Assembly: GCF_011065895.1 (NCBI RefSeq)
Contig: NZ_JAALCR010000039.1
Coordinates: 14,496-46,495 of the forward strand
Direction: 5' to 3'
DNA: 32,000 bases
Source: Paludisphaera rhizosphaerae
GTDB lineage: Bacteria; Planctomycetota; Planctomycetia; Isosphaerales; Isosphaeraceae
This document shows, piece by piece, positions 3,730-29,452 of the stretch (position 1 is the first letter of the stretch; each line of letters starts with the position of its first letter). The translations under genes were made by a program, and so were the position numbers. The notes beneath the pieces are model-generated. The model was not told the origin of the DNA. It did not search any database and saw nothing but the letters and a program-made list of their open reading frames with translations.

Positions 3730-3781
3730 GCACCCGAGTCGAGGACTCGACGGAGAGCGAATAGCCCGGAAGGGTTCCTTC

Positions 3782-15545: not shown

Positions 15546-15569
15546 CATGGCCACGCTTGCGTGGCCATG
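15546..15569. repeat. REP-like palindromic hairpin, copy 2 (CATGGCCACGC-TT-GCGTGGCCATG)
   Basis: Same stem as the copy at 3706 with a different loop. It lies in the 162-nt cusB-cusA spacer. Confidence 0.85.
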
Positions 15570-15606
15570 GACCAGCGCGGGATCATCGCTCGACCGTCGC
15601 CGATCG

Positions 15607-15630
15607 CATGCCCACGCGAGCGTGGGCATG
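15607..15630. repeat. REP-like palindromic hairpin, copy 3 (CATGCCCACGC-GA-GCGTGGGCATG, followed by GCACCC)
   Basis: It differs from copies 1 and 2 by a paired G>C / C>G change on the two arms, which keeps the stem perfect. It is located 61 nt after copy 2. Confidence 0.85.
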
Positions 15631-15675
15631 GCACCCATCACGCTCAATCGGACTAATGCGGACGGAGTCAAGCCG

Positions 15676-18600
15676 GTGATCGAAGGCGTCGTCGAGTGGT
15701 CCATCCGCAACCGGTTCCTCGTCATCATCGCGGCGATCGCGGTGGGGGTGGCGGGGCTGCGCGCCCTGGCGACGACGCCGGTGGACGCGGTGCCGGACCA
15801 GTCGGAAAACCAGGTCGTGGTCTTCACCGACTGGATGGGCCGCAGCCCCCAGGAGATCGAGGACCAGATCACCTACCCCCTGACGACGAAGCTCCAGGGG
15901 TTGGCCGGCGTGAAGGTGGTGCGGTCGTCGAGCGAGTTCAACTTCTCGATGATCAATATCATCTTCGACGACTCGGTCGAATATTACTTCGCCCGCGAAC
16001 GCGTGCTGGAAAGGCTGGCGACCGTCGCCCCGGACATGCCCCAGGGGGTGACGCCCTACATGGCGCCGGACGCCACCGCCGTCGGCCAGATCTTCTGGTA
16101 CACCGTCGAGGGGGACGGCGTCGGCCTGGACGAACTTCGGGCCATCCAGGACTGGTACGTCCGCTACCAGCTCAACGCGGTGCCGGGCGTGGCCGAGGTC
16201 GCCTCCGTCGGCGGAGCCCCGCGCGAGTATCAGGTCGACCTGGACCCCAGCAAGCTGCGGGCCTTCGGCGTCTCGCTGGGCGAGGTCTACTCGGCCGTCC
16301 AGCGTTCCAACTCGGCGGTCGGCGGGCGCGTCATCCACAAGGGGAACGCGGAGTACCTGATCCGATCCGTCGGCTGGCTCCGGGGCGTCGACGACCTCAA
16401 ACGCACCGTGGTCGCCCAGCGCAACGGGACGCCCATCTACCTGGAGACGATCGCCTCCGTCCAGACCGGCCCCGGCTTCAAGCGGAGCGTCCTGGAGAAG
16501 GACGGTCGAGAGGTGGTCGGCGGCGTGGTGATGATGCGGTTCGGCGAGAACCCGCTGGAGGTCACCCGCCAGATCAAGGAGAAGGTCGCCGCCCTCTCGC
16601 CGGGGCTCCCCGAAGGCGTGCGCATCGTCCCCTTCTACGACCGCACGCCGCTGATCGAGAAGGCGCTCGAGACGGTGTCGGACACGGTGTACGAGGAGAT
16701 CTTCATATCCACGGTCATGATCGTCCTGATCATGGGTCATCTCGGCGGTGCGTTCATCGTCTCGCTGACGTTGCCGCTGGCGATCCTGACCAGCTTCCTG
16801 ATGATGAAGATCTTCGGCGTCCCCTCCAACATCATGAGCCTGGCGGGGATCGCCATCTCGGTCGGCATCCTGGAGGACCAGGCCGTCGTCATGACGGAGA
16901 ACGCCGCGCACCATCTGACGCGACGGTTCGGCGACCAGCCGGTGCGCGGAGACGCCCTGGACGTCATCATCCCCGCCTGCCGCACCGTCGGCCGGCCGAT
17001 CTTCTTCTCGGTGCTCATCACGATCCTGTCGTTCCTGCCGGTCTTCGCCCTGACGGGACGGTCAGGCAAGATGTTTCACCCGCTGGCCTGGACCAAGACG
17101 TTCGCCCTGATCGGCGTGGCCGTGCTGGCCGTGACCCTGGTCCCCGCGCTCATCCCCATCTTCCTGCGCGGGCGGATCAAGTCCGAGGACGACTCGTGGC
17201 TGGTCCGAACGATGATCACCATCTTCAAGCCGATGCTCTCCTGGCTGATGGACCGCACCACGCTGGTCTGCTGGCTGTTCGTCTGCATCCTCGGCCTGGG
17301 ATGGCTGGCGGCCGGCCGCCTGGGGAGCGAATTCATGCCGCCGCTCGACGAGGGCTCGATCCTCGACATGCCCACCAGCGTGCCGCGGATGTCCGTCGCC
17401 CAGGCGACCGAAGACCTCAAAGCCCGCAACGCCGTGCTGCGCGGGTTCCCCGAAGTCGCCCAGGTCGTCGGCAAGGCCGGCCGCGCCGAGACCGCGACCG
17501 ACCCCTCCCCACTCGACATGGTCGAGACCATCATCAACCTGCACGACAAGGACCTCTGGACCAAGCGCAAGCTTCTCTTCGAGGACGCCCTCTGGCAGGT
17601 GGAAGCCGCGCGCAAAGCGATGGAGCGATCGGCCGATCCGACGTCTTCCCCCCTCGCGGGGGAAGACAGATCGCGAAGCGATCAGATGAGGGGGACGACC
17701 GCCGCCGGACTCGAGTCTGACGGCCGCTCCGAAACCAACGCCGATCCCCCCTCATCCGGCCCTGCGGGCCACCTTCCCCCGCGAGGGGGGAAGGCCGTTG
17801 TGGTTGTGGACGCAAACGACGCGGCCATGCACGTCGTGTCACGCGTCGACTCGACCCTCAGAATCCTCGCCGCCCGGCGCATCCAGGAGCACCGCCCGGC
17901 CATGCTGCGAGCCGCGGCCGGCGAGGCCGTCGACGCGATCCTGGAACGAGCCGGCCGGACGACGCGTGCGCTCACATCAAATGAGCGCGACGAGTTGTCG
18001 AAGGCGCTGGCCGATCGCTTCGGCGAGCGCCTGGCGGACGGCCCGGCGGTAGAGGACGTGGTGATGATCGCCGACGCCGCGACCGCCCGCCTGATCGCCA
18101 TGGGCGTCTTGCCCGCTGCCCCTGACCTGCTCTCCGCCCCCCCTGCCCTCTGGGACCGTGCCCGCGACCTGACGGCCTCGGCCCTCGGCGGTCGCGCGAA
18201 GTCGGCCTACGAGCGGATCGCCGAGCGAGTCGCTGCGGCCCGCGACGCCAGCCTGAAGGCTCGCATCAAGGACCTCAACTGGGAACTCTTCGACCGGGCC
18301 GTCGAGACTGCGACCGAGGCGGCGATCGACGCCCTCGCGGGCGAGAAGCCGCCCACAGCCGAGCAACGGTCATCCCTGATCGCCTCGCTCTCAAAACCCT
18401 TCGCCGACCGGCTGTTCCTCTGGAAGAAGACGAAGCAGGATCTGGTCGACGAGATGGACACGGCCCTGCAGGTGCCGGGATGGGGCAATATCTTCACCCA
18501 GCCGATCATCAACCGGATCGAGATGCTGGCGACGGGCGTCCGCACGCCGGTCGGCGTGAAGGTCTTCGGCGACGACCTCGACGAGATCCAGCGTGTGAGC

Positions 18601-19749
18601 GGGCAAGTCGCCGACGCGCTCCGGTCCGTCCGGGGCGCGGGGGGCGTCGTCGCCGATCAGATCGTCGGCAAGGGATACGTGGAGATCGACATCGACCGCG
18701 AAAAGGCCGCACGCTACGGCGTGCAGGTGGGAGACGTGCAGGACGTGGTCGAGGTCGCCATGGGGGGCCGCCCTCTCACCACGACCGTCGAGGGCCGCCG
18801 CCGCTTTCCCGTCCGCGTCCGATACGCTCGCGACTTCCGCGCCGATGAGGAGGCTCTCAAGAACATCCTCGTCACCAGCCGAGGGGCGACCGGAGAAGCG
18901 TCGGCCGGCATGGGGATGCCCGACGGCGACGCGAAGCCCGGCGCGGCGGCGGCCCCCGTGCCGGTGCCGCTCTCGCAGGTGGCGACCGTGAAGATCGTCG
19001 AGGGCCCCTCGATGATCAAGAGCGAGAACGGCCTCCTGCGGTCGTACGTCCAGCTCACCGTCACAGGCCGCGACGAGGTCGGGTTCGTCGAGGAGGCCCG
19101 TCGCGTCGTCGCCGAGAAGGTCAAACTCCCCAAGGGGATGTACCTGGAATGGTCGGGCCAGTTCGAGAACGAGTTGAAGACCAGGCGCACGCTCCAGGTC
19201 GTCTTCCCGGCCGTGCTGGTGGTGATCGTCCTGATCCTGTACATCACCTACAAGAGCTGGATCGACGCCGCCCTGATGATGACGAGCGTCCTGGGGGCGC
19301 TCGCCGGCGGGGCGATGTTCCAGTGGCTCTTCGGCTTCAACTTCTCCGTCGCCGTCTGGGTCGGATACATCGCCTGCTTCGGGATGGCCACGGAGACGGG
19401 TATCGTCATGCTCGTCTATTTGCGCGAGGCCCTGGAAGAGCGCGGCGGGCTGGAAGCGATCACGTCCGTCGACCAGTTGAAGGAAGCGATCCTCGAAGGC
19501 GCCATCCACCGGCTGCGTCCCAAGCTGCTGACCGAAGGGACCACGATCATCTCAATCGCCCCGATGCTCTGGGCCAGCGGCGTCGGCGCCGAGGTCATCC
19601 GCCCGATGGCCGCTCCCGTCCTCGGCGGCCTCCTGATCGCCGACGAGGTCATCGACGTCTTCCTCCCCGTGCTCTACTTCACCATGAAGAAATGGCAGTG
19701 GAGACGCCTTCATGGTTTGGGGCCGCTGGATACGGCGCGGGAGGCGTGA
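15676..19749 (+). CDS. cusA: CusA/CzcA-family heavy-metal efflux RND transporter (Cu(I)/Ag(I) type) carrying a ~288-codon periplasmic insertion
   Basis: I chose the GTG at 15676 (GGAG 8 nt upstream), giving VIEGVVEWSIRNRFLVIIAAI, which is colinear with the E. coli CusA N-terminus MIEWIIRRSVANRFLV. The listed start 15547 and the ATG at 15628 fall inside REP hairpins. Equivalents of the three-Met site are present: ILDMPTS (ATG 17368), PLDMVETI (ATG 17518), RIEMLATG (ATG 18523). The C-terminal TM bundle is conserved, with GMATETGIVMLVYL and RLRPKLLTEGTTI. Confidence 0.92.
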   Translation: MIEGVVEWSIRNRFLVIIAAIAVGVAGLRALATTPVDAVPDQSENQVVVFTDWMGRSPQEIEDQITYPLTTKLQGLAGVKVVRSSSEFNFSMINIIFDDSVEYYFARERVLERLATVAPDMPQGVTPYMAPDATAVGQIFWYTVEGDGVGLDELRAIQDWYVRYQLNAVPGVAEVASVGGAPREYQVDLDPSKLRAFGVSLGEVYSAVQRSNSAVGGRVIHKGNAEYLIRSVGWLRGVDDLKRTVVAQRNGTPIYLETIASVQTGPGFKRSVLEKDGREVVGGVVMMRFGENPLEVTRQIKEKVAALSPGLPEGVRIVPFYDRTPLIEKALETVSDTVYEEIFISTVMIVLIMGHLGGAFIVSLTLPLAILTSFLMMKIFGVPSNIMSLAGIAISVGILEDQAVVMTENAAHHLTRRFGDQPVRGDALDVIIPACRTVGRPIFFSVLITILSFLPVFALTGRSGKMFHPLAWTKTFALIGVAVLAVTLVPALIPIFLRGRIKSEDDSWLVRTMITIFKPMLSWLMDRTTLVCWLFVCILGLGWLAAGRLGSEFMPPLDEGSILDMPTSVPRMSVAQATEDLKARNAVLRGFPEVAQVVGKAGRAETATDPSPLDMVETIINLHDKDLWTKRKLLFEDALWQVEAARKAMERSADPTSSPLAGEDRSRSDQMRGTTAAGLESDGRSETNADPPSSGPAGHLPPRGGKAVVVVDANDAAMHVVSRVDSTLRILAARRIQEHRPAMLRAAAGEAVDAILERAGRTTRALTSNERDELSKALADRFGERLADGPAVEDVVMIADAATARLIAMGVLPAAPDLLSAPPALWDRARDLTASALGGRAKSAYERIAERVAAARDASLKARIKDLNWELFDRAVETATEAAIDALAGEKPPTAEQRSSLIASLSKPFADRLFLWKKTKQDLVDEMDTALQVPGWGNIFTQPIINRIEMLATGVRTPVGVKVFGDDLDEIQRVSGQVADALRSVRGAGGVVADQIVGKGYVEIDIDREKAARYGVQVGDVQDVVEVAMGGRPLTTTVEGRRRFPVRVRYARDFRADEEALKNILVTSRGATGEASAGMGMPDGDAKPGAAAAPVPVPLSQVATVKIVEGPSMIKSENGLLRSYVQLTVTGRDEVGFVEEARRVVAEKVKLPKGMYLEWSGQFENELKTRRTLQVVFPAVLVVIVLILYITYKSWIDAALMMTSVLGALAGGAMFQWLFGFNFSVAVWVGYIACFGMATETGIVMLVYLREALEERGGLEAITSVDQLKEAILEGAIHRLRPKLLTEGTTIISIAPMLWASGVGAEVIRPMAAPVLGGLLIADEVIDVFLPVLYFTMKKWQWRRLHGLGPLDTAREA
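17643..17794. repeat. Nested-palindromic MITE-like element, subfamily 2, copy E3 (~152 bp), located in-frame inside cusA
   Basis: Terminal hairpins GTCTTCCCCC-CTCGC-GGGGGAAGAC (17643-17667) and CCTTCCCCC-GCGAG-GGGGGAAGG (17772-17794). Inner pair GATGAGGGGG / CCCCCCTCATC. The internal block TCCGAAACC is related to subfamily 1. It is an inverted counterpart of the copy at 28478-28622. Local codon third positions are atypical: tct, aga, cga, gga, tca, ctt, gtt. Confidence 0.85.
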
Positions 19750-19780
19750 ACGTCGCCGAAACGGAGTGATGCTCTTCGTC

Positions 19781-19940
19781 CCCTCTCCCACCGGGAGAGG
19801 GTGGCCCGCAGGGCCGGGTGAGGGTCGTCGGACTTGTAGATATCGCGAAGGAGTGCCGATCGCCCGGCTCCGAGATACCTTCCGAAATCCGATGACCCTC
19901 ACCCGCCGCTGCGCGGCTGCCCTCTCCCGGCGGGAGAGGG
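19781..19940. repeat. Nested-palindromic MITE-like element, subfamily 1, copy E2 (~160 bp)
   Basis: Terminal hairpins CCCTCTCCC-ACC-GGGAGAGGG (19781-19801) and CCCTCTCCC-GGC-GGGAGAGGG (19920-19940). Inner pair GGTGAGGGTCG / GACCCTCACCC. The internal block TTCCGAAATCCGATGACCCTCACCC matches E1. It starts 32 nt after the cusA stop. Confidence 0.88.
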
Positions 19941-20000
19941 GACCTGGATCCAGCCGGCTTGCCACGCTTCCACGGTCTGCGAGAAGGAGTTCTGCCTACA

Positions 20001-20642
20001 ATGAACATCGCCCTCTTCGGCGCGTCCGGCATGATCGGGCGTCGCATCCTGGACGAGGCCCTAGAGCGGGGTCACCGCGTGCGGGCGATCGTCCGCGATC
20101 CGTCGCGGTTGGAGGATCGGCCCGAGGGGCTGACGGTCGAGGTCGGCGACATCCTCGATCCGGCGAGTGTCGCCGAAGCGGCGAGCGGGTGTGGCGCGGT
20201 GGTCAGCGCCTTCGGCGTCCGGGCCGATCAGGGGCCGGGGGCCGTCGCGCGGGCGGCGCGGGCCTTGATCGCGGGGCTGAAGGACGGCGGCCCTCGGCGG
20301 CTGATCTTCGTCGGCGGATCCGGCAGCCTGGAGGTCGCGCCGGGGACGTGGGTTCTGGACGTCCCCCACTTCCCCCCCGCCTTGCGACCGATCGCCCTGG
20401 ACCACGCCCACGCGCTGGAGGTCTTCCGCAAGGAGGGCCAGGCCCTCGAATGGACCTACTTCAGCCCCGCCGCCATGATCCACCCCGGCGAGCGGACCGG
20501 CCGGTTCCGCCTCGGCGGCGACCGCCTCGTCGCCGACGCCCAGGGCGACAGCCGAATCTCGGCCGAGGACTACGCCGTCGCCCTCCTCGACGAACTGGAG
20601 AACCCCCGGCACGTCCGCAAACGGTTCACGATCGGCTATTGA
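20001..20642 (+). CDS. NAD(P)H-binding protein (atypical SDR, NmrA/BVR-B/YwnB-like)
   Basis: The ATG at 20001 gives MNIALFGASGMIGRRILDEALERGHRVRAIVRDP, a Rossmann GxxGxxG at the N-terminus. Later segments LIFVGGSGSL and WTYFSPAAMI are typical of this family. Confidence 0.85.
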   Translation: MNIALFGASGMIGRRILDEALERGHRVRAIVRDPSRLEDRPEGLTVEVGDILDPASVAEAASGCGAVVSAFGVRADQGPGAVARAARALIAGLKDGGPRRLIFVGGSGSLEVAPGTWVLDVPHFPPALRPIALDHAHALEVFRKEGQALEWTYFSPAAMIHPGERTGRFRLGGDRLVADAQGDSRISAEDYAVALLDELENPRHVRKRFTIGY

Positions 20643-21169
20643 GCCCAATCCTCCAGTTCCGCATCGAGCAGGTCGACGAGAGAGCAGAGATGAATCGACC
20701 TCTCGTCATCGAGCGGCACGCCTTCGAGCCTCTCAAGCAGGTCGTCCCGACTCGCGACCAGTTTCTCGACATCCTGAAGAGGGATGATCCCATTAAGGAT
20801 CATGACGGCCTTCGCGCGAACCTCGAAGTAGTCGTCGAAGACCAGTTCGTAGAGGAAGTCATAGTCGTCGCGGCAATCCAGATCGAGCATCGCGTAGAGG
20901 AAGCTGCCGCGATGGCCCTTCGTCCTCGGGTCCCGGATTAACTCGATAAGCCTCGGTTTGGCCGCCTGGACTTTCAGCTCTCCCAGGGCGTAAGCGAACG
21001 CGCCAAGTTTATGCAGAGCCTCGGCTCCCGCCGGGGGGAGCGTGGACAGGAGGCGCAACAGGTCCGGCACGGCCTCGACGCCCCCCATGTGGGCAAGATC
21101 GAACGCCGCCTGAACGGCGACCTTTCGGTCGTTCGAGCTCAGCCGCAGGATGGCGTGTGCTTGGTCCAT
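20636..21169 (-). CDS. HEAT-repeat (PBS-lyase HEAT-like) protein, low-GC
   Basis: I chose the ATG at 21169 (MDQAHAILRLSSNDRKVAVQAAFDLAHMGGVEAVPDLLRLL). The upstream part of the listed 267-aa ORF is Arg/Pro-rich and unlikely to be coding. Two hand-counted 60-nt lines gave 52-53% GC. Its 3' end overlaps the convergent gene's 3' end by 7 nt. Confidence 0.75.
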   Translation of the reverse strand: MDQAHAILRLSSNDRKVAVQAAFDLAHMGGVEAVPDLLRLLSTLPPAGAEALHKLGAFAYALGELKVQAAKPRLIELIRDPRTKGHRGSFLYAMLDLDCRDDYDFLYELVFDDYFEVRAKAVMILNGIIPLQDVEKLVASRDDLLERLEGVPLDDERSIHLCSLVDLLDAELEDWAQ

Positions 21170-21459
21170 GCTTTCTTCGATCGGAGTTCTCTTCCTCAGC
21201 GGGACGCTGTGGACGCCCGCGTTTCGCCGCCCACCGATGGCGATTGGGACAGGCCGAGAGCGAATGCTCCTTGCGGCGATCGGTCCGAAAGGGCGACGGG
21301 CGACGACGACCGCGATGGCCCGGCGCTGCAAGACTACGATCTCACCTGGGAGACCGCCAGCAATCTTCACGCAAACTTTACGGCCGGTTCGACGTTTGAA
21401 CCCATCAGGACGTTCATACTCGGGGAGGTTTCTGTACAAGGCGGGGATGGAGACTCGAG

Positions 21460-22953
21460 TTGGACTACGATTTCGACGTCATCGTCGTGGGCGGAGGAGC
21501 AGGCGGCGCGACGTTCGCTTACGCCTGCGCCCAGGCCGGGAAGTCGGTCCTGGTCCTGGAGCGAGGCGGCCGTCACACGGTCGGGACGCCCCACGACGAG
21601 AAGGCCGCCCTGATCGACAAGAGGCCTTACGACGACCGCGAAGTCGAGGTCAACGGCAAGGCGAAACGGCTCTACATGGGAGGGATCCTCGGCGGCGGCT
21701 CCAGCCTCTACGGCGCGGCGCTGATTCGACCGAGCGAGGAGGACTTTTATCCCGGCCGCTACTACGGCAAGCGGATCCCCAAATCGATCTGGGACTGGCC
21801 GATCTCCTACGCCGACCTTGAGCCCCATTACACCGAGGTCGAGCGGCTGCTGGGCGTGGCGGGATGCGGCGACGACGACTTCGGGCCGCTGCAGAAGCCG
21901 GCCGCGGGCTTCCCGGGCGAGCCGCTTCCGCTGCACCCGATCAACGAGCGCCTGATCTCCGCCAACCGTCGCCGCGGGCTGCGTCCGTTCCAACTCCCGC
22001 TGGCGATCGACTCTTCACGATGCCTGCGATGCTCCCTCTGCGCGGGGCTCCCCTGCCCCACCGGAGCCCGCGGGTCGTCGGCCCAACTCCTCGACTCAGC
22101 CCAGGCGAGAGGCCTGGCGCTGACGGTCCAGACGCGGGTGGAGGTGGAGAAGCTGGCCCGCGAGCCGGGGACCGGCGCGACGGTCGTCGACGTGATCGAC
22201 CGCAACACGGGGAATCGCCGGCGCTACAGGGCCCGTCGCTACGCCCTGGCCGCCGGCGCGTTCGCCTCGCCGCTGCTGCTGATGCGGTCGGGCGTCGAGC
22301 ATTCCCAGCTCGGTCGCAATTACATGATGCACATCTGCGCGTTGGTCGCAGGCGTCTATCCCAAGGAGACGGACGCCGAGTCCTCGTTCGTCAAGCAGGT
22401 CGGCTTCTCGGACTTCTACTTCGGGACGAAGCGATATCGGCACAAGATGGGGTTGGTCCAATCACTGGGCGTCCCTGGCCCGTTGATGACGGCCAAGGTT
22501 TCACCGTTCCTCCCAGCACCCGTGCGGAAGTTCCTGCGGGAGCGGATCCTCCTCATGGCGGGACTCATCGAGGACCTGCCGAACCCCGCCAACCGCGTCG
22601 GCCTGGAATCGGACGGCCGGGGCTCGCTCACCCATCGCTACGCCCGCTACGATCGCGTCCGACGCAAGCGACTGGCCCCGCACATCGCGCGGATCTTGAA
22701 GCGCTCGGGCGCGATCTACTGCGTCGCACCACGGTATTCCTCTCACGAGCACGTGGCCCATCAGTGCGGGACGATGAGGTTCGGCAAGGACCCGGCCCAC
22801 GCGGTCCTGGATCCGGACTGCCGGCTGTTCGCGAACCCCGACGTCTTCGCGGTCGACGGCGGATTCATGCCGACTTCGCTGGGGGTCGGTCCCGGGCTCA
22901 CGATCATGGCGAACTCGTTGCGCGTGGCGTCGAAAGTGGTGGCCGAGCTGTGA
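21460..22953 (+). CDS. GMC-family FAD-dependent oxidoreductase
   Basis: N-terminal FAD fold DYDFDVIVVGGGAGGATFAYACAQAGKSVLVLERG. C-terminal GMC signature HQCGTMRFGKDPAHAVLDPDCRLFANPDVFAVDGGFMPTSLGVGPGLTIMANSLRVA. TTG start with GGAGAC upstream. Confidence 0.9.
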   Translation: MDYDFDVIVVGGGAGGATFAYACAQAGKSVLVLERGGRHTVGTPHDEKAALIDKRPYDDREVEVNGKAKRLYMGGILGGGSSLYGAALIRPSEEDFYPGRYYGKRIPKSIWDWPISYADLEPHYTEVERLLGVAGCGDDDFGPLQKPAAGFPGEPLPLHPINERLISANRRRGLRPFQLPLAIDSSRCLRCSLCAGLPCPTGARGSSAQLLDSAQARGLALTVQTRVEVEKLAREPGTGATVVDVIDRNTGNRRRYRARRYALAAGAFASPLLLMRSGVEHSQLGRNYMMHICALVAGVYPKETDAESSFVKQVGFSDFYFGTKRYRHKMGLVQSLGVPGPLMTAKVSPFLPAPVRKFLRERILLMAGLIEDLPNPANRVGLESDGRGSLTHRYARYDRVRRKRLAPHIARILKRSGAIYCVAPRYSSHEHVAHQCGTMRFGKDPAHAVLDPDCRLFANPDVFAVDGGFMPTSLGVGPGLTIMANSLRVASKVVAEL

Positions 22954-23876
22954 AGACTTCCGAGAAACTGTCGGCGGCTGGCCTCTCACGGCGCGTCTCC
23001 ATCAGACTGGAACAGTTCCGCCAGGCCCGCCGGATCCACGGCGGCCTGCGAGGCCTCGGCACGGCCGTCCTCGGGGTTAAGCTCTCGCGCCTGCCGATCC
23101 CTTCGCGACGCCTTCGCGGGCGGCTCTTCCGCGACCTGTACGCTCGGATGTATCCCCCCGGGCTCAACGCCGACGAGGCCGAGCGGCCGCTGGAAGACTA
23201 CCCGTCGTTCAACGCCCTCTTCACACGAGCGCTCAAGCGCGAGCACCGGCCCATCCCCGACGACGGAGCCAGCCTCCTGAGCCCCTGCGACGGCGTCGTC
23301 CAGGACACAGGACGCGTGGAAAACGGGCGGTTGATGACGGTCAAGGGGATCGAGTACAGCGTCGAGTCGCTGCTCGGCGGCCTGGATCCCGGGCCCTATG
23401 AGGGAGGCCAGTTCGCGATCGTCTTCCTCTCGCCCATCGACTGCCACCGCGTCTTCAGCCCGACCGACGCGGTCATGGAGGAAGCGATCCACGTCCCCGG
23501 CGCCCGTCTGCTCGTCCACCCCCCGTTCCAGACGGCCGAGTATCCCGTCTACACGTTGAACGAGCGCGTGATTTTCCGACTGGCCACGAGCTCGGGGCCG
23601 TGCGCCGTCGTCATGGTGGCCGGTTGGGGCGTGGGGAACATCACGCTCCCCCTGGCGCCGGACTTCCGGACGAACGGTCGACGGATCGAGTCGCATCGCT
23701 GGCCGTCGCCGCCCGAGGTCCGCCGAGGCGACTGGATCGCCACGTTCGAGCTGGGTTCGACGGTCGTCCTGTTGGCCTCGGCGGCGCTCAAAGCGACCCC
23801 CCTGGTCTCCCCGAACGAGAAGGTCCGCTATGGTCAGCCCGTCTTCAAACTCGATCCCTGCGCCGTCGCTCGATGA
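22950..23876 (+). CDS. psd: Phosphatidylserine decarboxylase family protein (pyruvoyl-dependent)
   Basis: The GTG at 22950 overlaps the GMC stop (GTGA). Motifs are LLSPCDGVV, VFLSPIDCHRVFSP (family motif LSPxDYHRxH) and the self-cleavage site FELGSTVVLL. The listed ORF start at 21864 is an out-of-frame overlap of the GMC gene. Confidence 0.88.
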   Translation: MKTSEKLSAAGLSRRVSIRLEQFRQARRIHGGLRGLGTAVLGVKLSRLPIPSRRLRGRLFRDLYARMYPPGLNADEAERPLEDYPSFNALFTRALKREHRPIPDDGASLLSPCDGVVQDTGRVENGRLMTVKGIEYSVESLLGGLDPGPYEGGQFAIVFLSPIDCHRVFSPTDAVMEEAIHVPGARLLVHPPFQTAEYPVYTLNERVIFRLATSSGPCAVVMVAGWGVGNITLPLAPDFRTNGRRIESHRWPSPPEVRRGDWIATFELGSTVVLLASAALKATPLVSPNEKVRYGQPVFKLDPCAVAR

Positions 23877-25698
23877 GCCGACGGCAGGGCGCGTCGCAAC
23901 GCTCTCCGGAACGGGCGAACCACTCCGGGCCGGCGTCATGCTCATCGTAGGCTTCGGCGATCCGCTCGCGTCCGCACTGGCCGCTTTCGTGAGGCAGAGC
24001 CCGGACCGTGAGGCGGTCGTCGTCGATGACGATTCGCGGAGCCTGGCGATCCCTCGCGATCGAGAGGACGGCGAGGCGGCGAGCCTGATCGTGGTCTTGC
24101 CCTCTCGCCTCGGAGAGCGTGAGCGTCATCACCTCGCAGCGCTTCTCGACGAGGCCCGCCGCACGTCGATCGCCTTCGTCGGGTTGGTCGGGACGTTCCG
24201 CGTTCATCTCGACGATTCGACGGCCGAGGAGATGGAGCAAGCCGCGCTGGCGATGGTCGAATCGAAGCTCGCCGGAGCCCGCATCGCCGTCTTTCGGCCG
24301 AGCCACGTGGTCGGGGTGGGCGGCGAGGCGGATCGCTGGCTGAAGCGGTTGGGCCCGCTCTTCCCGCTGGCTCCCGACGACCTGCGGACCTGCTTCGTCG
24401 AGGCCGACGAACTCCTCGCCGCGATCGAGGATGAGGCGAGCGGGTCGTCCGTCGACGAGAAATCCGAAACACCCGGCCGGCCGCTGGACCGCCGCCGCAG
24501 GGAGTACACGTTCCTGGGCGGGAACGTCGCGTGGCGTGAGATGCTCGCTCGCCATCGCGGCCATTCTCCGGTCCACAACGCGGCGACGGCCTTAGCACAC
24601 GGACTGTCGTGGCTGCTGGTCGGGCGACTGCTCGCGGCCGCCTTGGCGACGGCCTCACGGTGGTCGCCGACCGCCAGGGCCTGGTCGGTCTCGACGCTCA
24701 AGCCGCGAACGATGCGGGAGTTGGTCTCGCTCTGCCATCGCGGGAACATCGACCGCGTGCGAGTCGTGGGCTACAACAACGGCGTGCACCACTTCGGCCA
24801 TCGCCATCCGGGGAAGACGATCGTCTCAACCGTCCGGCTGCGACGGACTGTTCACGCGCGGCCGGGCGTGATGAAGGCGGACTCCGGCGCGACGATCCGC
24901 CGCGCGAAGGACTACCTCGGCGGTCGCGGCGAGGAGTTGTACGTCATGCCCAACTACTCGTACGTGGCTCTTGGGACGGCGTTCTTCGTGCCGATCCACG
25001 GATCGGCCGTCGATTACGCCACGGTCGCCGATACGATCCTCCGCGTCGTCCTGTACGACCCGGATCAGGACCGGATCATCGTCGCCGATCGAGACGACGC
25101 GGCCTTCCGCGAGAACGTCTATAACCCCCGGTCGCGAGCCGTCCTGCTGAGGCTCTGTCTGCGGACGCGTCCCAGGTCGAGCTACTACGTCCGGAGCGAG
25201 ACCACCAAGGGCCTGGGGGGGCGAGAACTGCTCGCGGCCCTGCGCGATCGCGACGCGGCGAACGTCGAGGTCCGCCAGGCCAACGCAGCGAGCGACAAGG
25301 TGACCGTCTCCCGCTACTACACGAAGGCGACCGGCCCGTCCGCCGCCGCGTTGGAGTCCCCGCGCGACGCGCTGGGGAGGCTCTGGGATCGGCTGGAAGA
25401 GAACCCGATCACGTCCTACCTGATGCACGCCCTGAGCCGTCGCGTGGCCTGGCACACGGAGTTGTTCCTCACCCCCGCCGAGTTCGAGCGCTTCTGGACG
25501 ACTCACGATCAGGTCCCCCTGCGCAAGATTCAGCTCCGATACATCTACCGCGACGGGATGCCCCACTCGCCCTTCCGCGACGAGGACTGCGTCTCGGCCG
25601 ACCTCTTCCTGTTCCGGCTCGACAAGCCGAAGTTCGACGCCTACATGGCGAAGCACCTGCCGAACGTTCGGTTCAACCCCGGCAAACACAGCAACTAG
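23830..25698 (+). CDS. FAD-linked oxidase of the VAO/PCMH clan (arabinono-lactone-oxidase/DprE1-like) with an N-terminal degenerate Rossmann-like domain and a hydrophobic segment
   Basis: The FAD_binding_4-like region is VRVVGYNNGVHHFGH...KADSGATIRRAKDYL...YVMPNYSYVALGTAFFVPIHGS. The C-terminal RFNPGKH resembles the ALO-type HWGK end. The N-terminal part has MLIVGFGDPLASALAAF...RIAVFRPSHVVG. A hydrophobic helix is ALAHGLSWLLVGRLLAAALATA. The ATG at 23830 (GAGAAGG upstream) overlaps psd by 47 nt. The alternative ATG is at 23938. Confidence 0.8.
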   Translation: MVSPSSNSIPAPSLDEPTAGRVATLSGTGEPLRAGVMLIVGFGDPLASALAAFVRQSPDREAVVVDDDSRSLAIPRDREDGEAASLIVVLPSRLGERERHHLAALLDEARRTSIAFVGLVGTFRVHLDDSTAEEMEQAALAMVESKLAGARIAVFRPSHVVGVGGEADRWLKRLGPLFPLAPDDLRTCFVEADELLAAIEDEASGSSVDEKSETPGRPLDRRRREYTFLGGNVAWREMLARHRGHSPVHNAATALAHGLSWLLVGRLLAAALATASRWSPTARAWSVSTLKPRTMRELVSLCHRGNIDRVRVVGYNNGVHHFGHRHPGKTIVSTVRLRRTVHARPGVMKADSGATIRRAKDYLGGRGEELYVMPNYSYVALGTAFFVPIHGSAVDYATVADTILRVVLYDPDQDRIIVADRDDAAFRENVYNPRSRAVLLRLCLRTRPRSSYYVRSETTKGLGGRELLAALRDRDAANVEVRQANAASDKVTVSRYYTKATGPSAAALESPRDALGRLWDRLEENPITSYLMHALSRRVAWHTELFLTPAEFERFWTTHDQVPLRKIQLRYIYRDGMPHSPFRDEDCVSADLFLFRLDKPKFDAYMAKHLPNVRFNPGKHSN

Positions 25699-25705
25699 GC
25701 CACGA

Positions 25706-27865
25706 ATGCAAACGCCGCCGCCGATCGAAACCCTGAAGCAGATCCTGCGGGAACGTGAGCCCAACCTGCTGAGGCTCTACCTGAACCCGCACGTCGCCAG
25801 CACGTGCTTCTGCCTCGACCGCCTCGTCCGATCGACCTGGGCGCTGCCGTCAGGTCCGGCCGACGAGGCCTGGCAGTCGTTCCTCGCGAACGGGTTCGAG
25901 GAAGCGCTCGGCGGCGCGGTGAAGCTCGTCCGCTACAACCGCGACGAGACCGAGGCCGACGGCGTGGCGATCGTCGTCGACCCCTGTGACCGCCTGGAGG
26001 GGTTCGCCGATTGGCGACTCCCAGACGGCTCCCGCGTCGAGTTCCTCCCCGGGTTGCACGTGCTCGGCTCGTCGGATCTGGCCGAGGGCCTGCGGCGGAT
26101 CGAGGACGATGCGAAGATCGAGATGCTCGTTCTCGTCGCCGGCGATGACCATCGGCTTGACGAGCACGCCGAGGAGATCCAGGCGATCGTGAAGCAGCAT
26201 GCTCCGGCGGTCGTCGCGTGCGTCGATCGCGGCGGGTTGTCGAGGCTTCGCGAAGGGAAGCGCGACTGGCTCCGCGCGATCCCTCCCGACGTGGTCGTCT
26301 TCGACGACTCGTTCACGGGCAACTCTGTTCCCTTCGGCGCCTTCACGGCCCGCCAGTCGCTGTTCGCGGCCTGGAATCGGCCCGGGAAGAGCACGTTCCA
26401 TTCGACGACGTTCCAGCCGAACACGATCTCCACGCGGCACTTCATGAACGTCCTGACCGCGGTCGACCCGGAGTTCGTCCGGATCCGCGCCGACGACCTG
26501 AACGCGATCAGCGTCGATCTCGCGCGTCGCGGGGAGGCGTTCCGCCGTTACTACAACCCCTCGCTCTTTCGGTTGATCCGGGCGGCCGGGTTCGCGACGG
26601 CCGACGTGAAGGCGGCCGGCGGCGACGTCATCGTCAACGGCAACCGCATCCTCGATTTCGTCGGCGGGGTCGCGTGCAGCATGAGAGGCCACAACCCGCC
26701 GGCCTATGCGGATGAGTTGACTTTTCAGGGAGGCGCGGCTGATTCGCTTCGGGCGGAACTCGAAGCGCGGCTCCTGCCGCTCACTGGGCTCGGCAACGTC
26801 CTGCCGGCGGTCAGCGGCGGCGGGGCCGTTGAGAGCGCACTGAGGACAGCGCTCGTCGCCAGGTTCCCCCGTCGGCGAATCCTGGCACTCAGGGCGGGTT
26901 TCGGCGGCAAGACGCTCTTCTCGCTGACGGGGACTGCCAACCAGTCGTACAAGGACCGCATCGGCCCTTTGTACGCCGAGGTGCATTACGTCGACCCCTT
27001 CGCCCCCGACGCCGCCGAACAGATCGATGCCCTCTTGTGCGCCGATGATTTCGCGGCCGTCATCCTCGAATTGATCCAGTCCGTGGGCGGGGTGCGAGCG
27101 ATCCCCGAATCCCTGATCCGACGCCTCGACGAGGAGCGACGCCGGCGCGGCTTCCTGCTGATCGTGGACGAGGTCCAGACCGGCATGTACCGCACGGGCC
27201 CGTTCTGCCGCTCGCAGGCGCTCGGCCTGACGCCAGATCTCATGCTGCTGGGCAAAGGGACGTCCGACATGATGTTCCCCTTCTCCCTGACCCTCTACTC
27301 CGACGCCGTGGCCGAATTGCTCCGCGGCCGAGGCGAGGGGTTGATCGAGTCGATCCGCGAGCGCTACGGCTATGAGTTGGGCTATCGGACCGTGATCAAC
27401 GTCTTGCGGTCGGCCGAGGAAATGGAGCTTTCCGCCCGGGTCGTCGAGGCCGAGGCGAAGTTCGAGGAGAAGCTCCGCAGCGGTCTGGGTGCCCTCAAGA
27501 ACGTCCGCGACGTCCGCGTCTTCGGCCTGCTCATGGCCGTCGAACTCGACGTGGAGCGAGGCTCGCGGCGTTGGTTGCGGAAGCGGCTTGGGGCGCTGTA
27601 TCTGCTTGCGATGCTTCAGCGCAAGCAAAACCCGCTGCTCGCCGGCTTCTGCCAGTACGAACCGAATACGTTGAAGATCACCCCGCCGCTGAATGTCGAG
27701 GCCGACGAGATCGACAGGGCCTGCGAGACGATCGTCGAGGTCCTGAAGCGGCCGTTCGCGCGCGTCTTGCTCGCGGGTCTCATCCAGCTTGGAAAGCCAT
27801 CACCGTTCCGAAAGGGAATCCATGAGCACGGCGACCGCCCGGCCGTTGAGTTTGCTGCACGTTGA
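25706..27865 (+). CDS. Class-III (Aminotran_3) PLP-dependent aminotransferase with an N-terminal ~300-aa degenerate duplicate of the same fold
   Basis: The C-terminal half has ILDFVGGVACSMRGHNPP, AVSGGGAVESALRTAL, FAAVILELIQSVGGV, LLIVDEVQTGMYRTGPF, DLMLLGKGTSDMMFP (Schiff-base Lys context), VRVFGLLMAVEL and LKITPPLNV. The N-terminal half has colinear but degenerate counterparts: NGFEEALGGAVKLVRY, PDVVVFDDSFTGNSVPFGAF (Lys replaced), FHSTTFQPNTIS. The ATG lies 7 nt after the upstream stop. Confidence 0.88.
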   Translation: MQTPPPIETLKQILREREPNLLRLYLNPHVASTCFCLDRLVRSTWALPSGPADEAWQSFLANGFEEALGGAVKLVRYNRDETEADGVAIVVDPCDRLEGFADWRLPDGSRVEFLPGLHVLGSSDLAEGLRRIEDDAKIEMLVLVAGDDHRLDEHAEEIQAIVKQHAPAVVACVDRGGLSRLREGKRDWLRAIPPDVVVFDDSFTGNSVPFGAFTARQSLFAAWNRPGKSTFHSTTFQPNTISTRHFMNVLTAVDPEFVRIRADDLNAISVDLARRGEAFRRYYNPSLFRLIRAAGFATADVKAAGGDVIVNGNRILDFVGGVACSMRGHNPPAYADELTFQGGAADSLRAELEARLLPLTGLGNVLPAVSGGGAVESALRTALVARFPRRRILALRAGFGGKTLFSLTGTANQSYKDRIGPLYAEVHYVDPFAPDAAEQIDALLCADDFAAVILELIQSVGGVRAIPESLIRRLDEERRRRGFLLIVDEVQTGMYRTGPFCRSQALGLTPDLMLLGKGTSDMMFPFSLTLYSDAVAELLRGRGEGLIESIRERYGYELGYRTVINVLRSAEEMELSARVVEAEAKFEEKLRSGLGALKNVRDVRVFGLLMAVELDVERGSRRWLRKRLGALYLLAMLQRKQNPLLAGFCQYEPNTLKITPPLNVEADEIDRACETIVEVLKRPFARVLLAGLIQLGKPSPFRKGIHEHGDRPAVEFAAR

Positions 27866-28355
27866 TTTCGACGGCCTCTACACCCGGCACCTCGGCCGGC
27901 ACTCGCAGTTCGGCATCAACGTCAATCACCTGATCGCGTTGTACATGCTCTGGTTCGGGATCTACTCGTTCCTCACGCAGGGGGCCCGACTCATCGGCGT
28001 CCCCTCGCCGTGGGTCGTGCCCGTGGGGTTGGCCGTCGCCTACCTGGTGGTCGTCAGCCTGCACTCGCCGCTCCGGGTAATCCTCGTGACGGCTGCGTTT
28101 CTGGCCCTGTTCGTCGCCAGCGTCCTGATCGTCCCGCAGGTTCCGGCCTGGGCGATCCCGCTGTTCCTGCTGCTGATCCCCGTCGGCTACAAGATCCAGT
28201 CGCGAGGCCACAGAATCTGGACGGCTGCCGCGGATATGTCCGACTTCAACCGACGCTTCCCCCCAGGCCGCGACCTGAACATCGTCCTGCTCTTCTACGA
28301 GATCCCCATCTGCCTGAACTACCTGACGTACCGCCGCGCGGACTGGAAGCGGTGA
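27822..28355 (+). CDS. Small polytopic membrane protein, tentatively DUF962/Mpo1-like
   Basis: There are three to four hydrophobic helices: LIALYMLWFGIYSFL, VVPVGLAVAYLVVVSL, VILVTAAFLALFVASVLIV, AIPLFLLLIPVGY. His-containing motifs YTRHLGRHSQFGINVNHL and SRGHRIW resemble the Mpo1 family pattern. The ATG at 27822 overlaps the aminotransferase 3' end by 44 nt. Alternative TTG starts are at 27847 and 27853. Confidence 0.65.
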   Translation: MSTATARPLSLLHVDFDGLYTRHLGRHSQFGINVNHLIALYMLWFGIYSFLTQGARLIGVPSPWVVPVGLAVAYLVVVSLHSPLRVILVTAAFLALFVASVLIVPQVPAWAIPLFLLLIPVGYKIQSRGHRIWTAAADMSDFNRRFPPGRDLNIVLLFYEIPICLNYLTYRRADWKR

Positions 28356-28419
28356 GGACGTAGACCCCTCTCTCTATTCAGATCATAACGGCCTTCCCCC
28401 CTCTCGGGGGTGTATGGAC

Positions 28420-28459
28420 CGGGGACATGGGTAACAGGTGTTCGGGGACATGGGTGACA
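28420..28459. repeat. Tandem direct repeat, 23-bp period, 2 copies (CGGGGACATGGGTAACA / CGGGGACATGGGTGACA)
   Basis: The copies at 28420-28436 and 28443-28459 match at 16 of 17 positions. They lie in the convergent intergenic spacer. A solo truncated hairpin CCCCC-CTCTC-GGGGG sits at 28396-28410. Confidence 0.7.
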
Positions 28460-28477
28460 CATTTGGGAATCATGGAG

Positions 28478-28622
28478 GGCCTTCCAAGAGGAGGCTCGAA
28501 GGGCCGGATGAGGGGGGATTGGTGGCGCATTGACAGCCATGCTTCGGACGTGAATCCGGAGCCGGTCGCCCCCTCATCTGACCGCTTCGCGGTCTGACTT
28601 CCCCGGCAAGGGGGGAAGACGT
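28478..28622. repeat. Nested-palindromic MITE-like element, subfamily 2, copy E4 (~145 bp, left arm degenerate), inverted relative to E3
   Basis: The right arm CCCCCTCATCTGACCGCTTCGCGGTCTGACTTCCCCGGCAAGGGGGGAAGAC is the reverse complement of the E3 left arm apart from a few mismatches. The left arm GGCCTTCC...GAAGGGCCGGATGAGGGGGGAT matches the reverse complement of the E3 right arm, but its terminal hairpin has decayed. Confidence 0.8.
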
Positions 28623-28639
28623 CGGAACGGATACGCCGC

Positions 28640-29452
28640 TCAGCGCTTGCGGCCCAGCACGGCGACGATGTCGTGCGAATCCTGGATTGGGAACGCCAGG
28701 CGGTTGAGGAGCCATCGCTTGGCCGCGCCGGCGCGGTGCAGACCCATGCTTTCGATCAGCGGGGTGAGCCAGCCGCCGTGGTAGGCGAACTCCATGAAGC
28801 CGTCGAAGTTCTCGAAGTTCAGCGTGGGCCGGAACGTCTCGCTGCGAAGGACCTCGAAGCCGTTGGCTTCCATGACCTCGGCGACCTCGCCGGCGTCGGC
28901 CGGATTCAGGACGGTGTCGTCCATCCGCCGCGAGCCCGCGCCGGTGTACCAGCGGAGGAACCTGGAATCACCCTTGGCCTGGAGCGCCGGGTAGGCCGCC
29001 TTCGTGCCGCCGACCAGCGACCAGCAGCCCCCCGGCAGGAGCTTGCCGGCGATCTGGGGGGCCAGCGTGCGCATCGACACGAACCCGGTGACGAAGTGCG
29101 TGCAGACGCAGTCGAACTCGCGATCCTTGAAGTACGCGTCGAGCTTGGAGGCGTCGCCGGCGACGGCATCAAGGTCCGGCAGCCTCCGCCGGGCCACCTC
29201 CAGCATGCTCTCCGCCAGGTCGATCCCGAAGGGGATGATCCGACCTTCGGACGCCTGCTGGAGCTTCTCGAGGAAGAGCCCCGTCCCCATGCCGATGTCG
29301 AGGACGTGCAGGTCTCGGTCTGTCAGCAGGCCCTCGGCCTTCATCTGGCCGATGCCGAGGTCGAGCGCCCGGCCGATGACGCCCTGGGGATCGAGGTCGT
29401 AGTGCGTCGCGACGACGTCGTTGTATGCCTGGTGGACCGCCGTGGTATTCAT
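28640..29452 (-). CDS. Class I SAM-dependent methyltransferase
   Basis: SAM motif I VLDIGMGTGLFLEKL, followed by GIDLAESML, AGDASKLD and FDCVCTHFV. The opposite-strand ORF 28673-29473 is Arg/Gly/Pro-rich junk. Confidence 0.88.
   Translation of the reverse strand: MNTTAVHQAYNDVVATHYDLDPQGVIGRALDLGIGQMKAEGLLTDRDLHVLDIGMGTGLFLEKLQQASEGRIIPFGIDLAESMLEVARRRLPDLDAVAGDASKLDAYFKDREFDCVCTHFVTGFVSMRTLAPQIAGKLLPGGCWSLVGGTKAAYPALQAKGDSRFLRWYTGAGSRRMDDTVLNPADAGEVAEVMEANGFEVLRSETFRPTLNFENFDGFMEFAYHGGWLTPLIESMGLHRAGAAKRWLLNRLAFPIQDSHDIVAVLGRKR

Follow-up and report, generated by a model that had tools for sequence, protein, structure and literature searches.

DprE1 and DprE2 form an oxidise-then-reduce epimerase pair for decaprenyl-phosphoryl-ribose, in which DprE2 is a short-chain dehydrogenase/reductase (SDR). 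PlcP, a Mn-dependent metallophosphoesterase with LpxH as outgroup, frees diacylglycerol (DAG) from phospholipids, and Agt, a family 4 glycosyltransferase (GT4), glycosylates that DAG; plcP and agt often form one operon, or plcP lies beside btaAB (PMC9239053, PMC4796936, PMC8528852). A GT4 paired with a DUF2334 deacetylase is the GpgS/GpgD arrangement, which makes glucosaminyl-phosphatidylglycerol in Pseudomonas (PMC12713373). Many bacterial polar lipids have no known genes, and amino- and glycolipids entered as 'unidentified' are routine in species descriptions of Planctomycetota. Here we analysed a stretch of 32,000 nucleotides (the window; ~68% GC) from the Isosphaeraceae planctomycete Paludisphaera rhizosphaerae, in which five genes, G1 to G5, are tightly packed on one strand at 21460-28355. 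They encode a GMC-family flavin adenine dinucleotide (FAD) dehydrogenase (G1), a pyruvoyl enzyme of the phosphatidylserine decarboxylase (PSD) family (G2), a three-part protein with a VAO/PCMH-fold flavin domain (G3), a tandem aminotransferase (G4) and a small, weakly Mpo1-like membrane protein (G5). Tentatively, and with somewhat less than even confidence, we read the locus as a membrane-bound two-module pathway by which a glycerolipid acquires an N-methylated amino head group, one that probably starts as a sugar.

What is established here are the families, the folds, the degenerate domains, and the gene order with its conservation. The cluster is an uncharacterised variant of the lipid head-group and remodelling clusters, composed of known enzyme superfamilies and two unannotated families. 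A first-pass annotation, made from the letters of the window, had stated that no characterised pathway has this gene set, and our reading of the literature agrees: searches on the gene combination, on bacterial Mpo1/DUF962, on planctomycete polar lipids and on planctomycete phosphatidylserine (PS) and phosphatidylcholine (PC) genes returned no description of the cluster. A 2025 paper on planctomycete ornithine lipids was set aside, as it concerns a different operon.

Gene order and conservation of the five-gene block

The first-pass annotation had described five same-strand genes with almost no spacing, and the open reading frame (ORF) list, together with a direct reading of the junctions, reproduced every coordinate. 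G1 begins at a TTG and ends in a TGA (22951-22953) that shares bases with the GTG start of G2 (GTGA, 22950-22953). Two ATG codons are candidate starts of G3, at 23830 (47-nt overlap with G2) and at 23938 (61 nt after the G2 stop); the former is favoured because an 'M-x-SPS' N-terminus is common to many homologues. Seven nucleotides separate the G3 stop (25696-25698) from the ATG of G4, and the ATG of G5 lies inside G4 with a 44-nt overlap. Homologues of G5 begin at the same 'MST..' start, and the overlapping starts of both G3 and G5 were accepted because of these shared N-termini.

To find loci, two G3 peptides served as patterns in a scan of GTDB genomes, one for each species, followed by tblastn with all window proteins. 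This returned 47 independent genome loci, and in every locus long enough the order G1-G2-G3-G4-G5 on one strand was observed, so that the co-localisation on which the first-pass annotation had staked its operon is decisively upheld in relatives. The loci represent five planctomycete lineages, under the labels Isosphaeraceae, Gemmataceae/Gemmatales, Pirellulales, Planctomycetaceae, Fuerstiella and Tepidisphaerales, and include three contigs from cyanobacterial metagenome-assembled genomes (MAGs; labels Trichodesmium, Mastigocoleus and 'Cyanobacteria'). Planctomycete contamination of the cyanobacterial assemblies was considered and rejected, since their loci have a GC content of 35-42% as against 50-73% in the planctomycete loci. 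The coupling of the genes is also conserved: G2 and G3 overlap in 26 of 31 loci and G4 and G5 in 25 of 34, and the median gap is 8 nt between G3 and G4 and 15.5 nt between G1 and G2. The gene families are rare, with only a few hundred members in 5.8 billion clusters.

Some observations on individual loci may be added. The cyanobacterial locus L024 has a version of seven genes, GT4-methyltransferase-G1-G2-G3-G4-G5. In Singulisphaera acidiphila DSM 18658, whose genome is complete, the cluster lies on NC_019892.1 (about 5.131-5.149 Mb); this species is genetically tractable (PMC12493201) and has four TLC spots of unassigned identity. The Mastigocoleus MAG contig (L029; JBHJJE010000069.1, 1106-7062) lacks G1 and has the module GT4-G2-G3-G4-methyltransferase-G5, preceded by a fatty-acid desaturase, a 762-aa thioesterase-acyl carrier protein (ACP)-alpha-oxoamine-synthase fusion (BioF/serine-palmitoyltransferase-like) and an SDR; this context suggests a sphingoid-type or other non-DAG lipid anchor there. 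In the MAG versions of L001, L011, L012, L034, L039, L045 and L048, genes are split into several tblastn pieces, implying frameshifts, which are most likely long-read assembly errors rather than pseudogenes.

Families and folds of the encoded proteins

Profile hidden Markov model (HMM) searches, the check proposed for all five products by the first-pass annotation, gave clear matches for the GMC, PSD and Aminotran_3 families; the G3 and G5 proteins of the window had no match in Pfam or NCBIfam scans, even at E<=10. G3 was described from its fold. Its degenerate Rossmann/SDR-like domain (~35-240) is followed first by a helical membrane hairpin (~247-283) and then by a VAO/PCMH-fold FAD domain (~290-622) of the alditol oxidase/DprE1/aldonolactone oxidase clade. 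In the AlphaFold model (pLDDT 78, pTM 0.77), the N-terminal ~200 residues form a Rossmann-like sheet followed by two long helices resembling a membrane hairpin, and a Foldseek search of the PDB pairs the C-terminal ~330 residues with galactonolactone dehydrogenase, alditol oxidase and DprE1 at a probability of 1.00 (entries 8qnb, 2vfs and 4fdo/DprE1; E 1e-13 to 1e-11, 370-440 aligned columns). The putative FAD-binding loops (317-324 and 374-394) have low confidence in this cofactor-free model. The earlier VAO-type assignment is thus borne out by fold and not by profile HMM; PF01565 (FAD_binding_4) is carried by a minority of G3 homologues, the window protein being without a match, and a profile of the N-terminal domain found no PDB sequence at E<=10. 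The family is small, with 264 representatives at 50% identity among 1.84 billion proteins, and the protein record 100% identical to G3 is annotated 'hypothetical protein'.

The planctomycete G3 family has lost the SDR motifs. In distant full-length relatives, recovered by an exhaustive search, the SDR N-domain is canonical and still has TGxxGGIG and YxxxK; the records of these proteins list Pfam Epimerase and FAD_binding_4, and they are intact fusions of SDR, transmembrane segment and VAO domain. Because these relatives retain the SDR motifs, the ancestral G3 would have consisted of a reductase-type SDR, a membrane segment and a DprE1-like oxidase, in that order. On one metagenome contig (L054, 6675-11962), an SDR-intact relative stands with a sulfotransferase, a GT4 and a DUF2334 deacetylase, with a gene resembling phosphatidylethanolamine (PE) N-methyltransferase nearby. 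On another (L052, 8959-11872), a distant SDR-intact relative is divergent from a methyltransferase; orthology of this enzyme with the methyltransferase of the window described below was considered and rejected, the two being unrelated. Both are probably representatives of another family of lipid-sugar tailoring loci.

The gene following G3 had been called a tandem aminotransferase, and both halves of G4 fit that description. Residues 310-680 match PF00202 (Aminotran_3; 5.3e-48, 164 bits against a cutoff of 30.5) over model positions 24-403 of 403, with PigE as the best NCBIfam match (1e-41) and 1vef, 5lh9 and 4ppm as the nearest structures. The N-terminal domain has no Pfam or NCBIfam match even at E<=10; a profile of residues 1-295 searched against the PDB retrieved acetylornithine aminotransferase (E=1.2e-4). 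In the alignment, 'vvFDesF' stands opposite 'alAKGL' of 2eh6, placing an acidic or Ser residue at the position of the catalytic Lys, and none of 14 sequences has a Lys in that stretch. Because the Schiff-base Lys position is without Lys in all 14, residues 1-295 are read as a pseudo class-III aminotransferase domain, apparently a dead copy of the same fold, and such a half would fit a built-in pseudo-dimer.

G2 matches PF02666 (5.9e-46, 157 bits against a cutoff of 22) and TIGR00163 (149.5 bits against a curated cutoff of 111.75), and the self-cleavage motif LGST is present as 'ELGSTVV', in agreement with the original PSD assignment. The published criteria for a PSD are the LGST motif and the residues D90/D142-H144-S254, of which D90, D142 and H144 matter by mutagenesis in the Escherichia coli enzyme (PMC7952604). 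Aligned to the latter (7cnw), G2 keeps D90, D142 and H144, its D and D-C-H-R standing opposite P-A-D-G and D-Y-H-R. Three positions differ, with Phe159 for Tyr137, Leu188 for Ser166 and Phe for His147. Loss of His147 was rejected as a sign of a disabled enzyme, since processing continues in E. coli H147 mutants, the key residue being H144 (PMC7952604). The side chains of Tyr137 and Ser166 hydrogen-bond the lipid phosphate in E. coli PSD, and 85% of PSDs have Tyr and 15% have Arg at position 137 (PMC7952604), which makes the Phe of G2 unusual. It is found in at least 90% of 37 G2 orthologues, and the Ser166 position is variable across the family and never Ser in the 16 orthologues displayed. 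Judged from these alignments, the loss of both phosphate contacts is compatible with a non-phosphoserine head group.

The GMC assignment of G1 is equally clear, both domains scoring over their cutoffs (GMC_oxred_N 1.9e-19, 70.8 bits against 23; GMC_oxred_C 1.6e-13, 51.9 bits against 24.6). Its nearest solved relatives are the alpha subunit of Burkholderia FAD-glucose dehydrogenase (6e-23), the large subunit of fructose dehydrogenase and 6'''-hydroxyparomomycin oxidase, and the NeoQ/LivQ-type enzyme 7dve is among the matches. In the large subunits of FAD-glucose and fructose dehydrogenases, a Cys-rich segment binds an Fe-S cluster. G1 has a Cys cluster, C187-x2-C190-x2-C193-x4-C198-P, whose four Cys are invariant in 31 orthologues; this stretch aligned to CCGNNNCMPICP of FAD-glucose dehydrogenase (8hdd/6a2u), but its spacing differs, and no small-subunit or cytochrome partner genes for G1 are present.

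G5 was modelled with high confidence (pLDDT 90.6) and has seven invariant residues, H23, H27, N33, H36, Q126, H130 and D138. No relative of its fold was found among PDB structures. The first-pass annotation had called it Mpo1-like, a claim that holds at the level of the family, where 12 of 22 orthologues match PF06127 (Mpo1/DUF962) weakly (best E=3.2e-4), and not for the window protein, which has no match to that model. G5 may thus be a remote Mpo1/DUF962-like protein, and a candidate Fe(II) oxygenase. Its family comprises 699 clusters at 90%, and members of the G3 and G5 families are all unannotated or 'hypothetical' except for one apparently misapplied JGI name on a G5 homologue.

Neighbouring genes and flanking sequences

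Clustering of all flanking ORFs of the operon loci identified a sixth conserved gene, encoding a class-I S-adenosylmethionine (SAM)-dependent methyltransferase (Table 1). Almost every locus of sufficient length has it beside the operon, and its position varies: convergent downstream in Isosphaeraceae, divergent upstream in Pirellulales and Planctomycetaceae, on the same strand as the operon in L024 and L030, and between G4 and G5 in L029. The persistence of this association despite changes of place and orientation, with one insertion between G4 and G5, argues for one pathway. The solved structures closest to the gene product, all weak matches, include aminosugar N-methyltransferases (CalS10, TylM1/DesVI type) and a PE N-methyltransferase, and aminosugar N,N-dimethyltransferases are also among the matches; the enzyme is probably an N-methyltransferase.

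Upstream of the methyltransferase gene of the window lies a gene for an LpxH/PlcP-like metallophosphoesterase, whose product matches an LpxH-like protein of Sinorhizobium meliloti over its full length (83 bits, 29% identity) and E. coli LpxH with 29 bits. A full-length homologue is found nearby in 13 loci including the window, with weaker partial matches in five more, and the protein is a candidate phospholipase C supplying DAG. A GT4 glycosyltransferase adjoins the methyltransferase in 16 loci, all outside Isosphaeraceae. Among curated entries it is closest to the GlcNAc-phosphatidylglycerol synthase GpgS (3e-39), followed by monoglucosyl-DAG synthase (8e-22), the GpgS score of 135 bits being far below the family cutoff of 480. 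GT4 and metallophosphoesterase are rarely both present in one locus. On a Thiodictyon plasmid, an LpxH-like gene is divergent from a glycosyltransferase 31% identical to the planctomycete GT4.

The methyltransferase, the PlcP-like gene and the GT4 of relatives make up a second module, absent from the first-pass annotation, and because of them the likely substrate moves from a PS-type phospholipid or long-chain amino alcohol to a glycerolipid sugar head group. The remodelling of a lipid head group suggested earlier is essentially supported, with the substrate shifted to a sugar on a glycerolipid and a system larger than the one described.

Other associations are local. A serine esterase gene (~220-260 aa, DUF676/alpha-beta hydrolase) overlaps the end of G5 and is translationally coupled to it in L035, L036, L040 and L043, in some Pirellulales and Planctomycetaceae, and possibly encodes a lipid deacylase belonging to the system. 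A pstS-like gene lies directly downstream in one locus (L041). Amination of a hopanoid side chain was rejected, as no hopanoid genes recur near the cluster.

Table 1. Features of the five-gene block and its surroundings in the window
Feature	Position	Strand	Basis
G1, GMC-family FAD dehydrogenase, putative membrane sugar-dehydrogenase type, 497 aa	21460..22953	+	Pfam GMC_oxred_N/C
G2, pyruvoyl-type PSD-family proenzyme, 308 aa, LGST cleavage motif	22950..23876	+	PF02666, TIGR00163
G3, three-part protein, 622 aa	23830..25698	+	AlphaFold model and Foldseek against PDB
G4, tandem aminotransferase, 719 aa	25706..27865	+	PF00202, NCBIfam, profile against PDB
G5, small polytopic membrane protein, 177 aa, about six helices	27822..28355	+	AlphaFold; orthologue profile matches
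Class-I SAM-dependent methyltransferase, 270 aa, sixth conserved gene	28640..29452	-	Methyltransf_25/11
LpxH/PlcP-like metallophosphoesterase, 276 aa	29517..30347	-	Pfam Metallophos; upstream of methyltransferase, same strand
Presumed operon promoter region	21170..21459	.	Between minus-strand HEAT-repeat gene and G1; read from sequence
Convergent spacer with dispersed GC-rich repeat elements	28356..28639	.	Inverted copies of 17633-17802 at 28384-28630

On the upstream side, a 290-bp divergent region had been proposed; this spacing requires an internal ATG start of the HEAT-repeat gene, whose longest ORF extends to 21439. No sigma-70-like site was found in this region and no Rfam family in the whole window. 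Inside the G1-G5 block, a scan that is weak for this phylum revealed neither a promoter-like site, whichever the strand, nor a terminator-like one on the + strand. The upstream neighbours, a HEAT-repeat protein (20636-21439, -) and an NmrA/NAD_binding_10 protein (19959-20642, +), are not conserved beside the operon in other loci. On the downstream side, the repeat-filled spacer noted earlier was confirmed 3' of G5. It contains members of a dispersed GC-rich palindromic repeat family (e.g. CCCTCTCCC..GGGAGAGGG) at 28384-28630, which also occur at 17633-17802, 6863-6988 and 19777-19943. The copy at 17633-17802 lies within a 1400-aa CusA/HME-RND-like ORF (15547-19749) and may be an in-frame MITE/REP-like insertion; CusA proteins are a few hundred residues shorter than this ORF. 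A 30-nt palindrome, CATGGCCACGCGAGCGTGGCCATGGCACCC, a candidate operator or repeat, is present three times (3706-3735, 15546-15575 and 15607-15636), two of the copies standing at the start of the CusA-like ORF, downstream of a CusB/HlyD-like gene.

Proposed pathway, alternatives and related systems

We infer the substrate, the order of steps and the product, as well as every step above the family level. In the proposed two-module pathway, the second module (PlcP-like phosphoesterase and/or GT4, with the methyltransferase) would supply the lipid acceptor, either DAG released from a phospholipid or phosphatidylglycerol (PG), and add the sugar. The hairpin-anchored, DprE1/alditol-oxidase-like G3 would oxidise a sugar hydroxyl to a ketone, which would pass to the class-III aminotransferase G4 and become an amine. 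That the ketone would be transaminated rather than reduced back is suggested by the decay of the reductase-type SDR domain of G3 and by the aminotransferase gene that follows 7 nt downstream. G1, the GMC sugar dehydrogenase with the Cys cluster, would carry out a second oxidation, the putative Mpo1-like iron oxygenase G5 would act on the resulting alpha-hydroxy-carbonyl, and the PSD-type pyruvoyl enzyme G2 would remove the carboxyl next to the amine, which the methyltransferase of the second module would later methylate. G2, G3 and G5 carry membrane-association features, and G1 and G3 both resemble sugar/polyol oxidoreductases. By analogy, a GMC oxidase with an aminotransferase is an established alcohol-to-amine pair, which would also support this reading. 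Further points in its favour are the conserved order and coupling of the genes, the sugar-on-lipid synthases matched by the GT4, the PlcP-like phosphoesterase, the GT4 and deacetylase beside a distant G3 relative and the pstS-like gene of L041.

Several points weigh against it. The link to PlcP is drawn from 29% identity to the S. meliloti protein, a putative PlcP whose gene a 564-aa ORF separates from sinR. No GT4 gene is adjacent in the window or in other Isosphaeraceae. The Mpo1 relationship of G5 is marginal, with no fold match in the PDB, and because an alpha-amino acid cannot form on an intact pyranoside, ring cleavage is required, for which the weakly assigned G5 is the sole candidate. 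G2, by its score, passes the cutoff for a true phosphatidylserine/archaetidylserine decarboxylase and could be a housekeeping psd gene. Finally, no E. coli-type Pho box was found (zero matches to CTGTCATNNNNCTGTCAT at <=3 mismatches), which is weak evidence, the planctomycete PhoB motif being unknown.

The requirement for ring cleavage would disappear if G1 or G3, G4, the methyltransferase and GT4 made an N-methylated aminoglycolipid, with G2 an ordinary psd co-transcribed because both serve membrane biogenesis and G5 an accessory membrane protein. The GMC oxidase and aminotransferase pair that turns a sugar CH2OH into CH2NH2 in aminoglycoside pathways, the presence of 7dve among the G1 matches, the aminosugar N,N-dimethyltransferases among those of the methyltransferase, the association of GT4 with the operon and the canonical HMM score of G2 are consistent with such a route. 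We nevertheless hold it to be unlikely, since overlapping reading frames flank G2 on both sides in nearly every locus, the cyanobacterial ones included; an unrelated housekeeping gene would rarely be embedded so strictly over such phylogenetic distances, and G2 has family-specific substitutions at substrate-contacting positions. If G2 is instead taken as a true PSD, the locus could interconvert phospholipid head groups and bypass PssA, from PG through PS and PE to PC: the glycerol of PG would be oxidised by G1, G3 and G5, G4 would yield PS, G2 PE and the methyltransferase PC. Alditol oxidase, which G3 resembles, accepts small polyols. The nearest relatives of G1 are membrane polyol/sugar dehydrogenases, three oxidation steps would correspond to three oxidative proteins, G2 passes the TIGR00163 cutoff with LGST, H144, D90 and D142 kept, and a PE N-methyltransferase is among the weak methyltransferase matches. 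In addition, Singulisphaera acidiphila has PC as a major lipid, and PE is not among its listed major classes (PMC12493201). This interconversion would leave the GT4 and the PlcP-like gene without a role, and the phosphate-binding Tyr137 and Ser166 are replaced across the G2 family. The cluster also occurs in cyanobacterial MAGs, and no cyanobacteria are known to make PE or PC; its rarity (a few hundred members, 5.8 billion clusters) is unlike that of a housekeeping route. Taken together, we consider it improbable.

Two further readings place the chemistry on other molecules, and we regard both as very unlikely. Envelope sugars linked to a polyprenyl carrier could be modified, or a soluble amine or natural product made: G3 is structurally related to DprE1, whose substrate is a polyprenyl-phosphate sugar; the top NCBIfam match of G4, PigE, comes from a pigment pathway; and Arn-type oxidise-decarboxylate-transaminate chemistry serves lipid A. 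The conserved gene set, however, contains no polyprenyl-phosphate glycosyltransferase, flippase, polyketide synthase or non-ribosomal peptide synthetase, and the PSD family and PlcP/Agt-like neighbours point to glycerolipids. A fatty-amine or long-chain-base pathway, to which we give slightly less credit still, would convert a 2-hydroxy fatty acid to a 2-oxo acid, a 2-amino fatty acid and, by the PSD-like enzyme, an alkylamine, followed by N-methylation and glycosylation. Mpo1 acts on 2-hydroxy fatty acids according to the PF06127 family description, G2 is without phosphate contacts, and members of the PSD family have acquired non-phospholipid amino acids as substrates, PsiD acting on tryptophan (PMC11929908). 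The Mastigocoleus module, moreover, follows the thioesterase-ACP-oxoamine-synthase fusion, the SDR and the desaturase, but this oxoamine synthase context is found in one locus only; two sugar/polyol-type oxidoreductases are conserved where the fatty-amine scheme needs one, and G3 relatives adjoin GT4 and deacetylase genes.

Within the sugar-based reading, a specific product can be written down. The cluster might be a biosynthetic pathway for a betaine lipid of the diacylglyceryl-carboxyhydroxymethylcholine (DGCC) type by dismantling of the sugar, an idea we consider no better than improbable. GT4 would form a uronosyl- or pentosyl-DAG; G3 would oxidise C4, a uronic acid also losing C6 as CO2; G4 would add a 4-amino group, and G1 would oxidise C2 or C3. 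The Mpo1-like G5 would then cut the C2-C3 alpha-hydroxyketone, leaving C1 as an acetal carbon with a carboxylate and C3-C4-C5 as an O-linked serine, which the PSD-like G2 would decarboxylate to ethanolamine and the methyltransferase would convert to choline, giving DAG-O-CH(COO-)-O-CH2CH2-N+(CH3)3. The loss of phosphate contacts in G2 would be explained by its substrate, the O-linked serine. This scheme, speculative but complete, gives every conserved gene a role. Haptophytes are classic DGCC producers. DGCC-like lipids have been reported in cultures of the haptophyte Prymnesium parvum (PMC13431280); in bacteria, DGCC is considered unprecedented (PMC7242380). A nuclear, intron-containing G3 homologue is present on P. 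parvum chromosome CM083856.1 (2.09-2.11 Mb; L055, 10001-12730), encoding 650 aa with 26% identity over residues 153-595 and the same architecture. Its gene neighbours are ordinary eukaryotic ones, with a TauD-family dioxygenase and a major facilitator superfamily (MFS) transporter within 10 kb and no other cluster gene homologue nearby, and a search with this protein returned only 4 proteins. The presence of a G3 homologue in a DGCC-producing lineage is a weak hint toward this product. A DGCC-like product, if true, would open the only betaine lipid with a completely unknown biosynthesis and alter its use as an algal biomarker, and any phosphorus-free product, if true, would mean a new way for soil and aquatic bacteria to make phosphate-sparing lipids. 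Independently of the product, the locus provides a concrete, phylogenetically well-supported set of 6 to 8 genes, of which two belong to unannotated families.

The closest known systems each have features in common with the cluster. PlcP-Agt loci of Sinorhizobium, Phaeobacter, SAR11, Pseudomonas aeruginosa and Methylosinus likewise have an LpxH-related metallophosphoesterase and a GT4 beside surrogate-lipid genes (PMC4796936, PMC8528852, PMC9239053), and the window phosphoesterase and the GT4 of relatives resemble them at about 30% identity. The cluster differs in adding five enzymes and a methyltransferase, in the absence of a visible Pho box and, in the window, in having no adjacent GT4. BtaA/BtaB, which make diacylglyceryltrimethylhomoserine (DGTS), also end in SAM-dependent N-methylation of an amino head group on DAG, with genes often beside plcP (PMC4796936), whereas the cluster has no BtaA-type aminocarboxypropyl transferase, would obtain its amine by transamination of an oxidised sugar and includes a decarboxylase. 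As in GpgSDF of P. aeruginosa, where glycosylation of a glycerophospholipid head group by a GT4 gives a cationic lipid (PMC12713373), a GT4 is involved: GpgS is the best curated match of the cluster GT4, and a distant G3 relative lies beside a GpgS/GpgD-like pair. Here, however, deacetylase and flippase are lacking and the amine would arise by oxidation and transamination. The cluster has a PSD-family decarboxylase next to a SAM methyltransferase, as does the Psd-PmtA route from PS to PC, but it lacks PssA, its G2 family is without Tyr137/Ser166, and four more enzymes are translationally coupled to G2. The NeoQ/LivQ GMC oxidase with a class-III aminotransferase, and ArnA/ArnB, follow the same logic of hydroxyl oxidation (by flavin or NAD) and transamination, Arn also decarboxylating; their substrates are soluble nucleotide sugars or pseudo-oligosaccharides, whereas the cluster enzymes are membrane-associated and the decarboxylase is of the pyruvoyl PSD type. 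Finally, the FAD domain of G3 matches DprE1, and the oxidase with intact SDR of its distant relatives mirrors the DprE1/DprE2 oxidase-reductase pair. In planctomycete G3 the SDR motifs are lost, the aminotransferase that follows suggests amination over epimerisation, and the carrier is probably a glycerolipid. G3 would thus represent a DprE1-like oxidase fused to a reductase that decayed in one lineage, with an aminotransferase in its place: an epimerase system rewired to amination.

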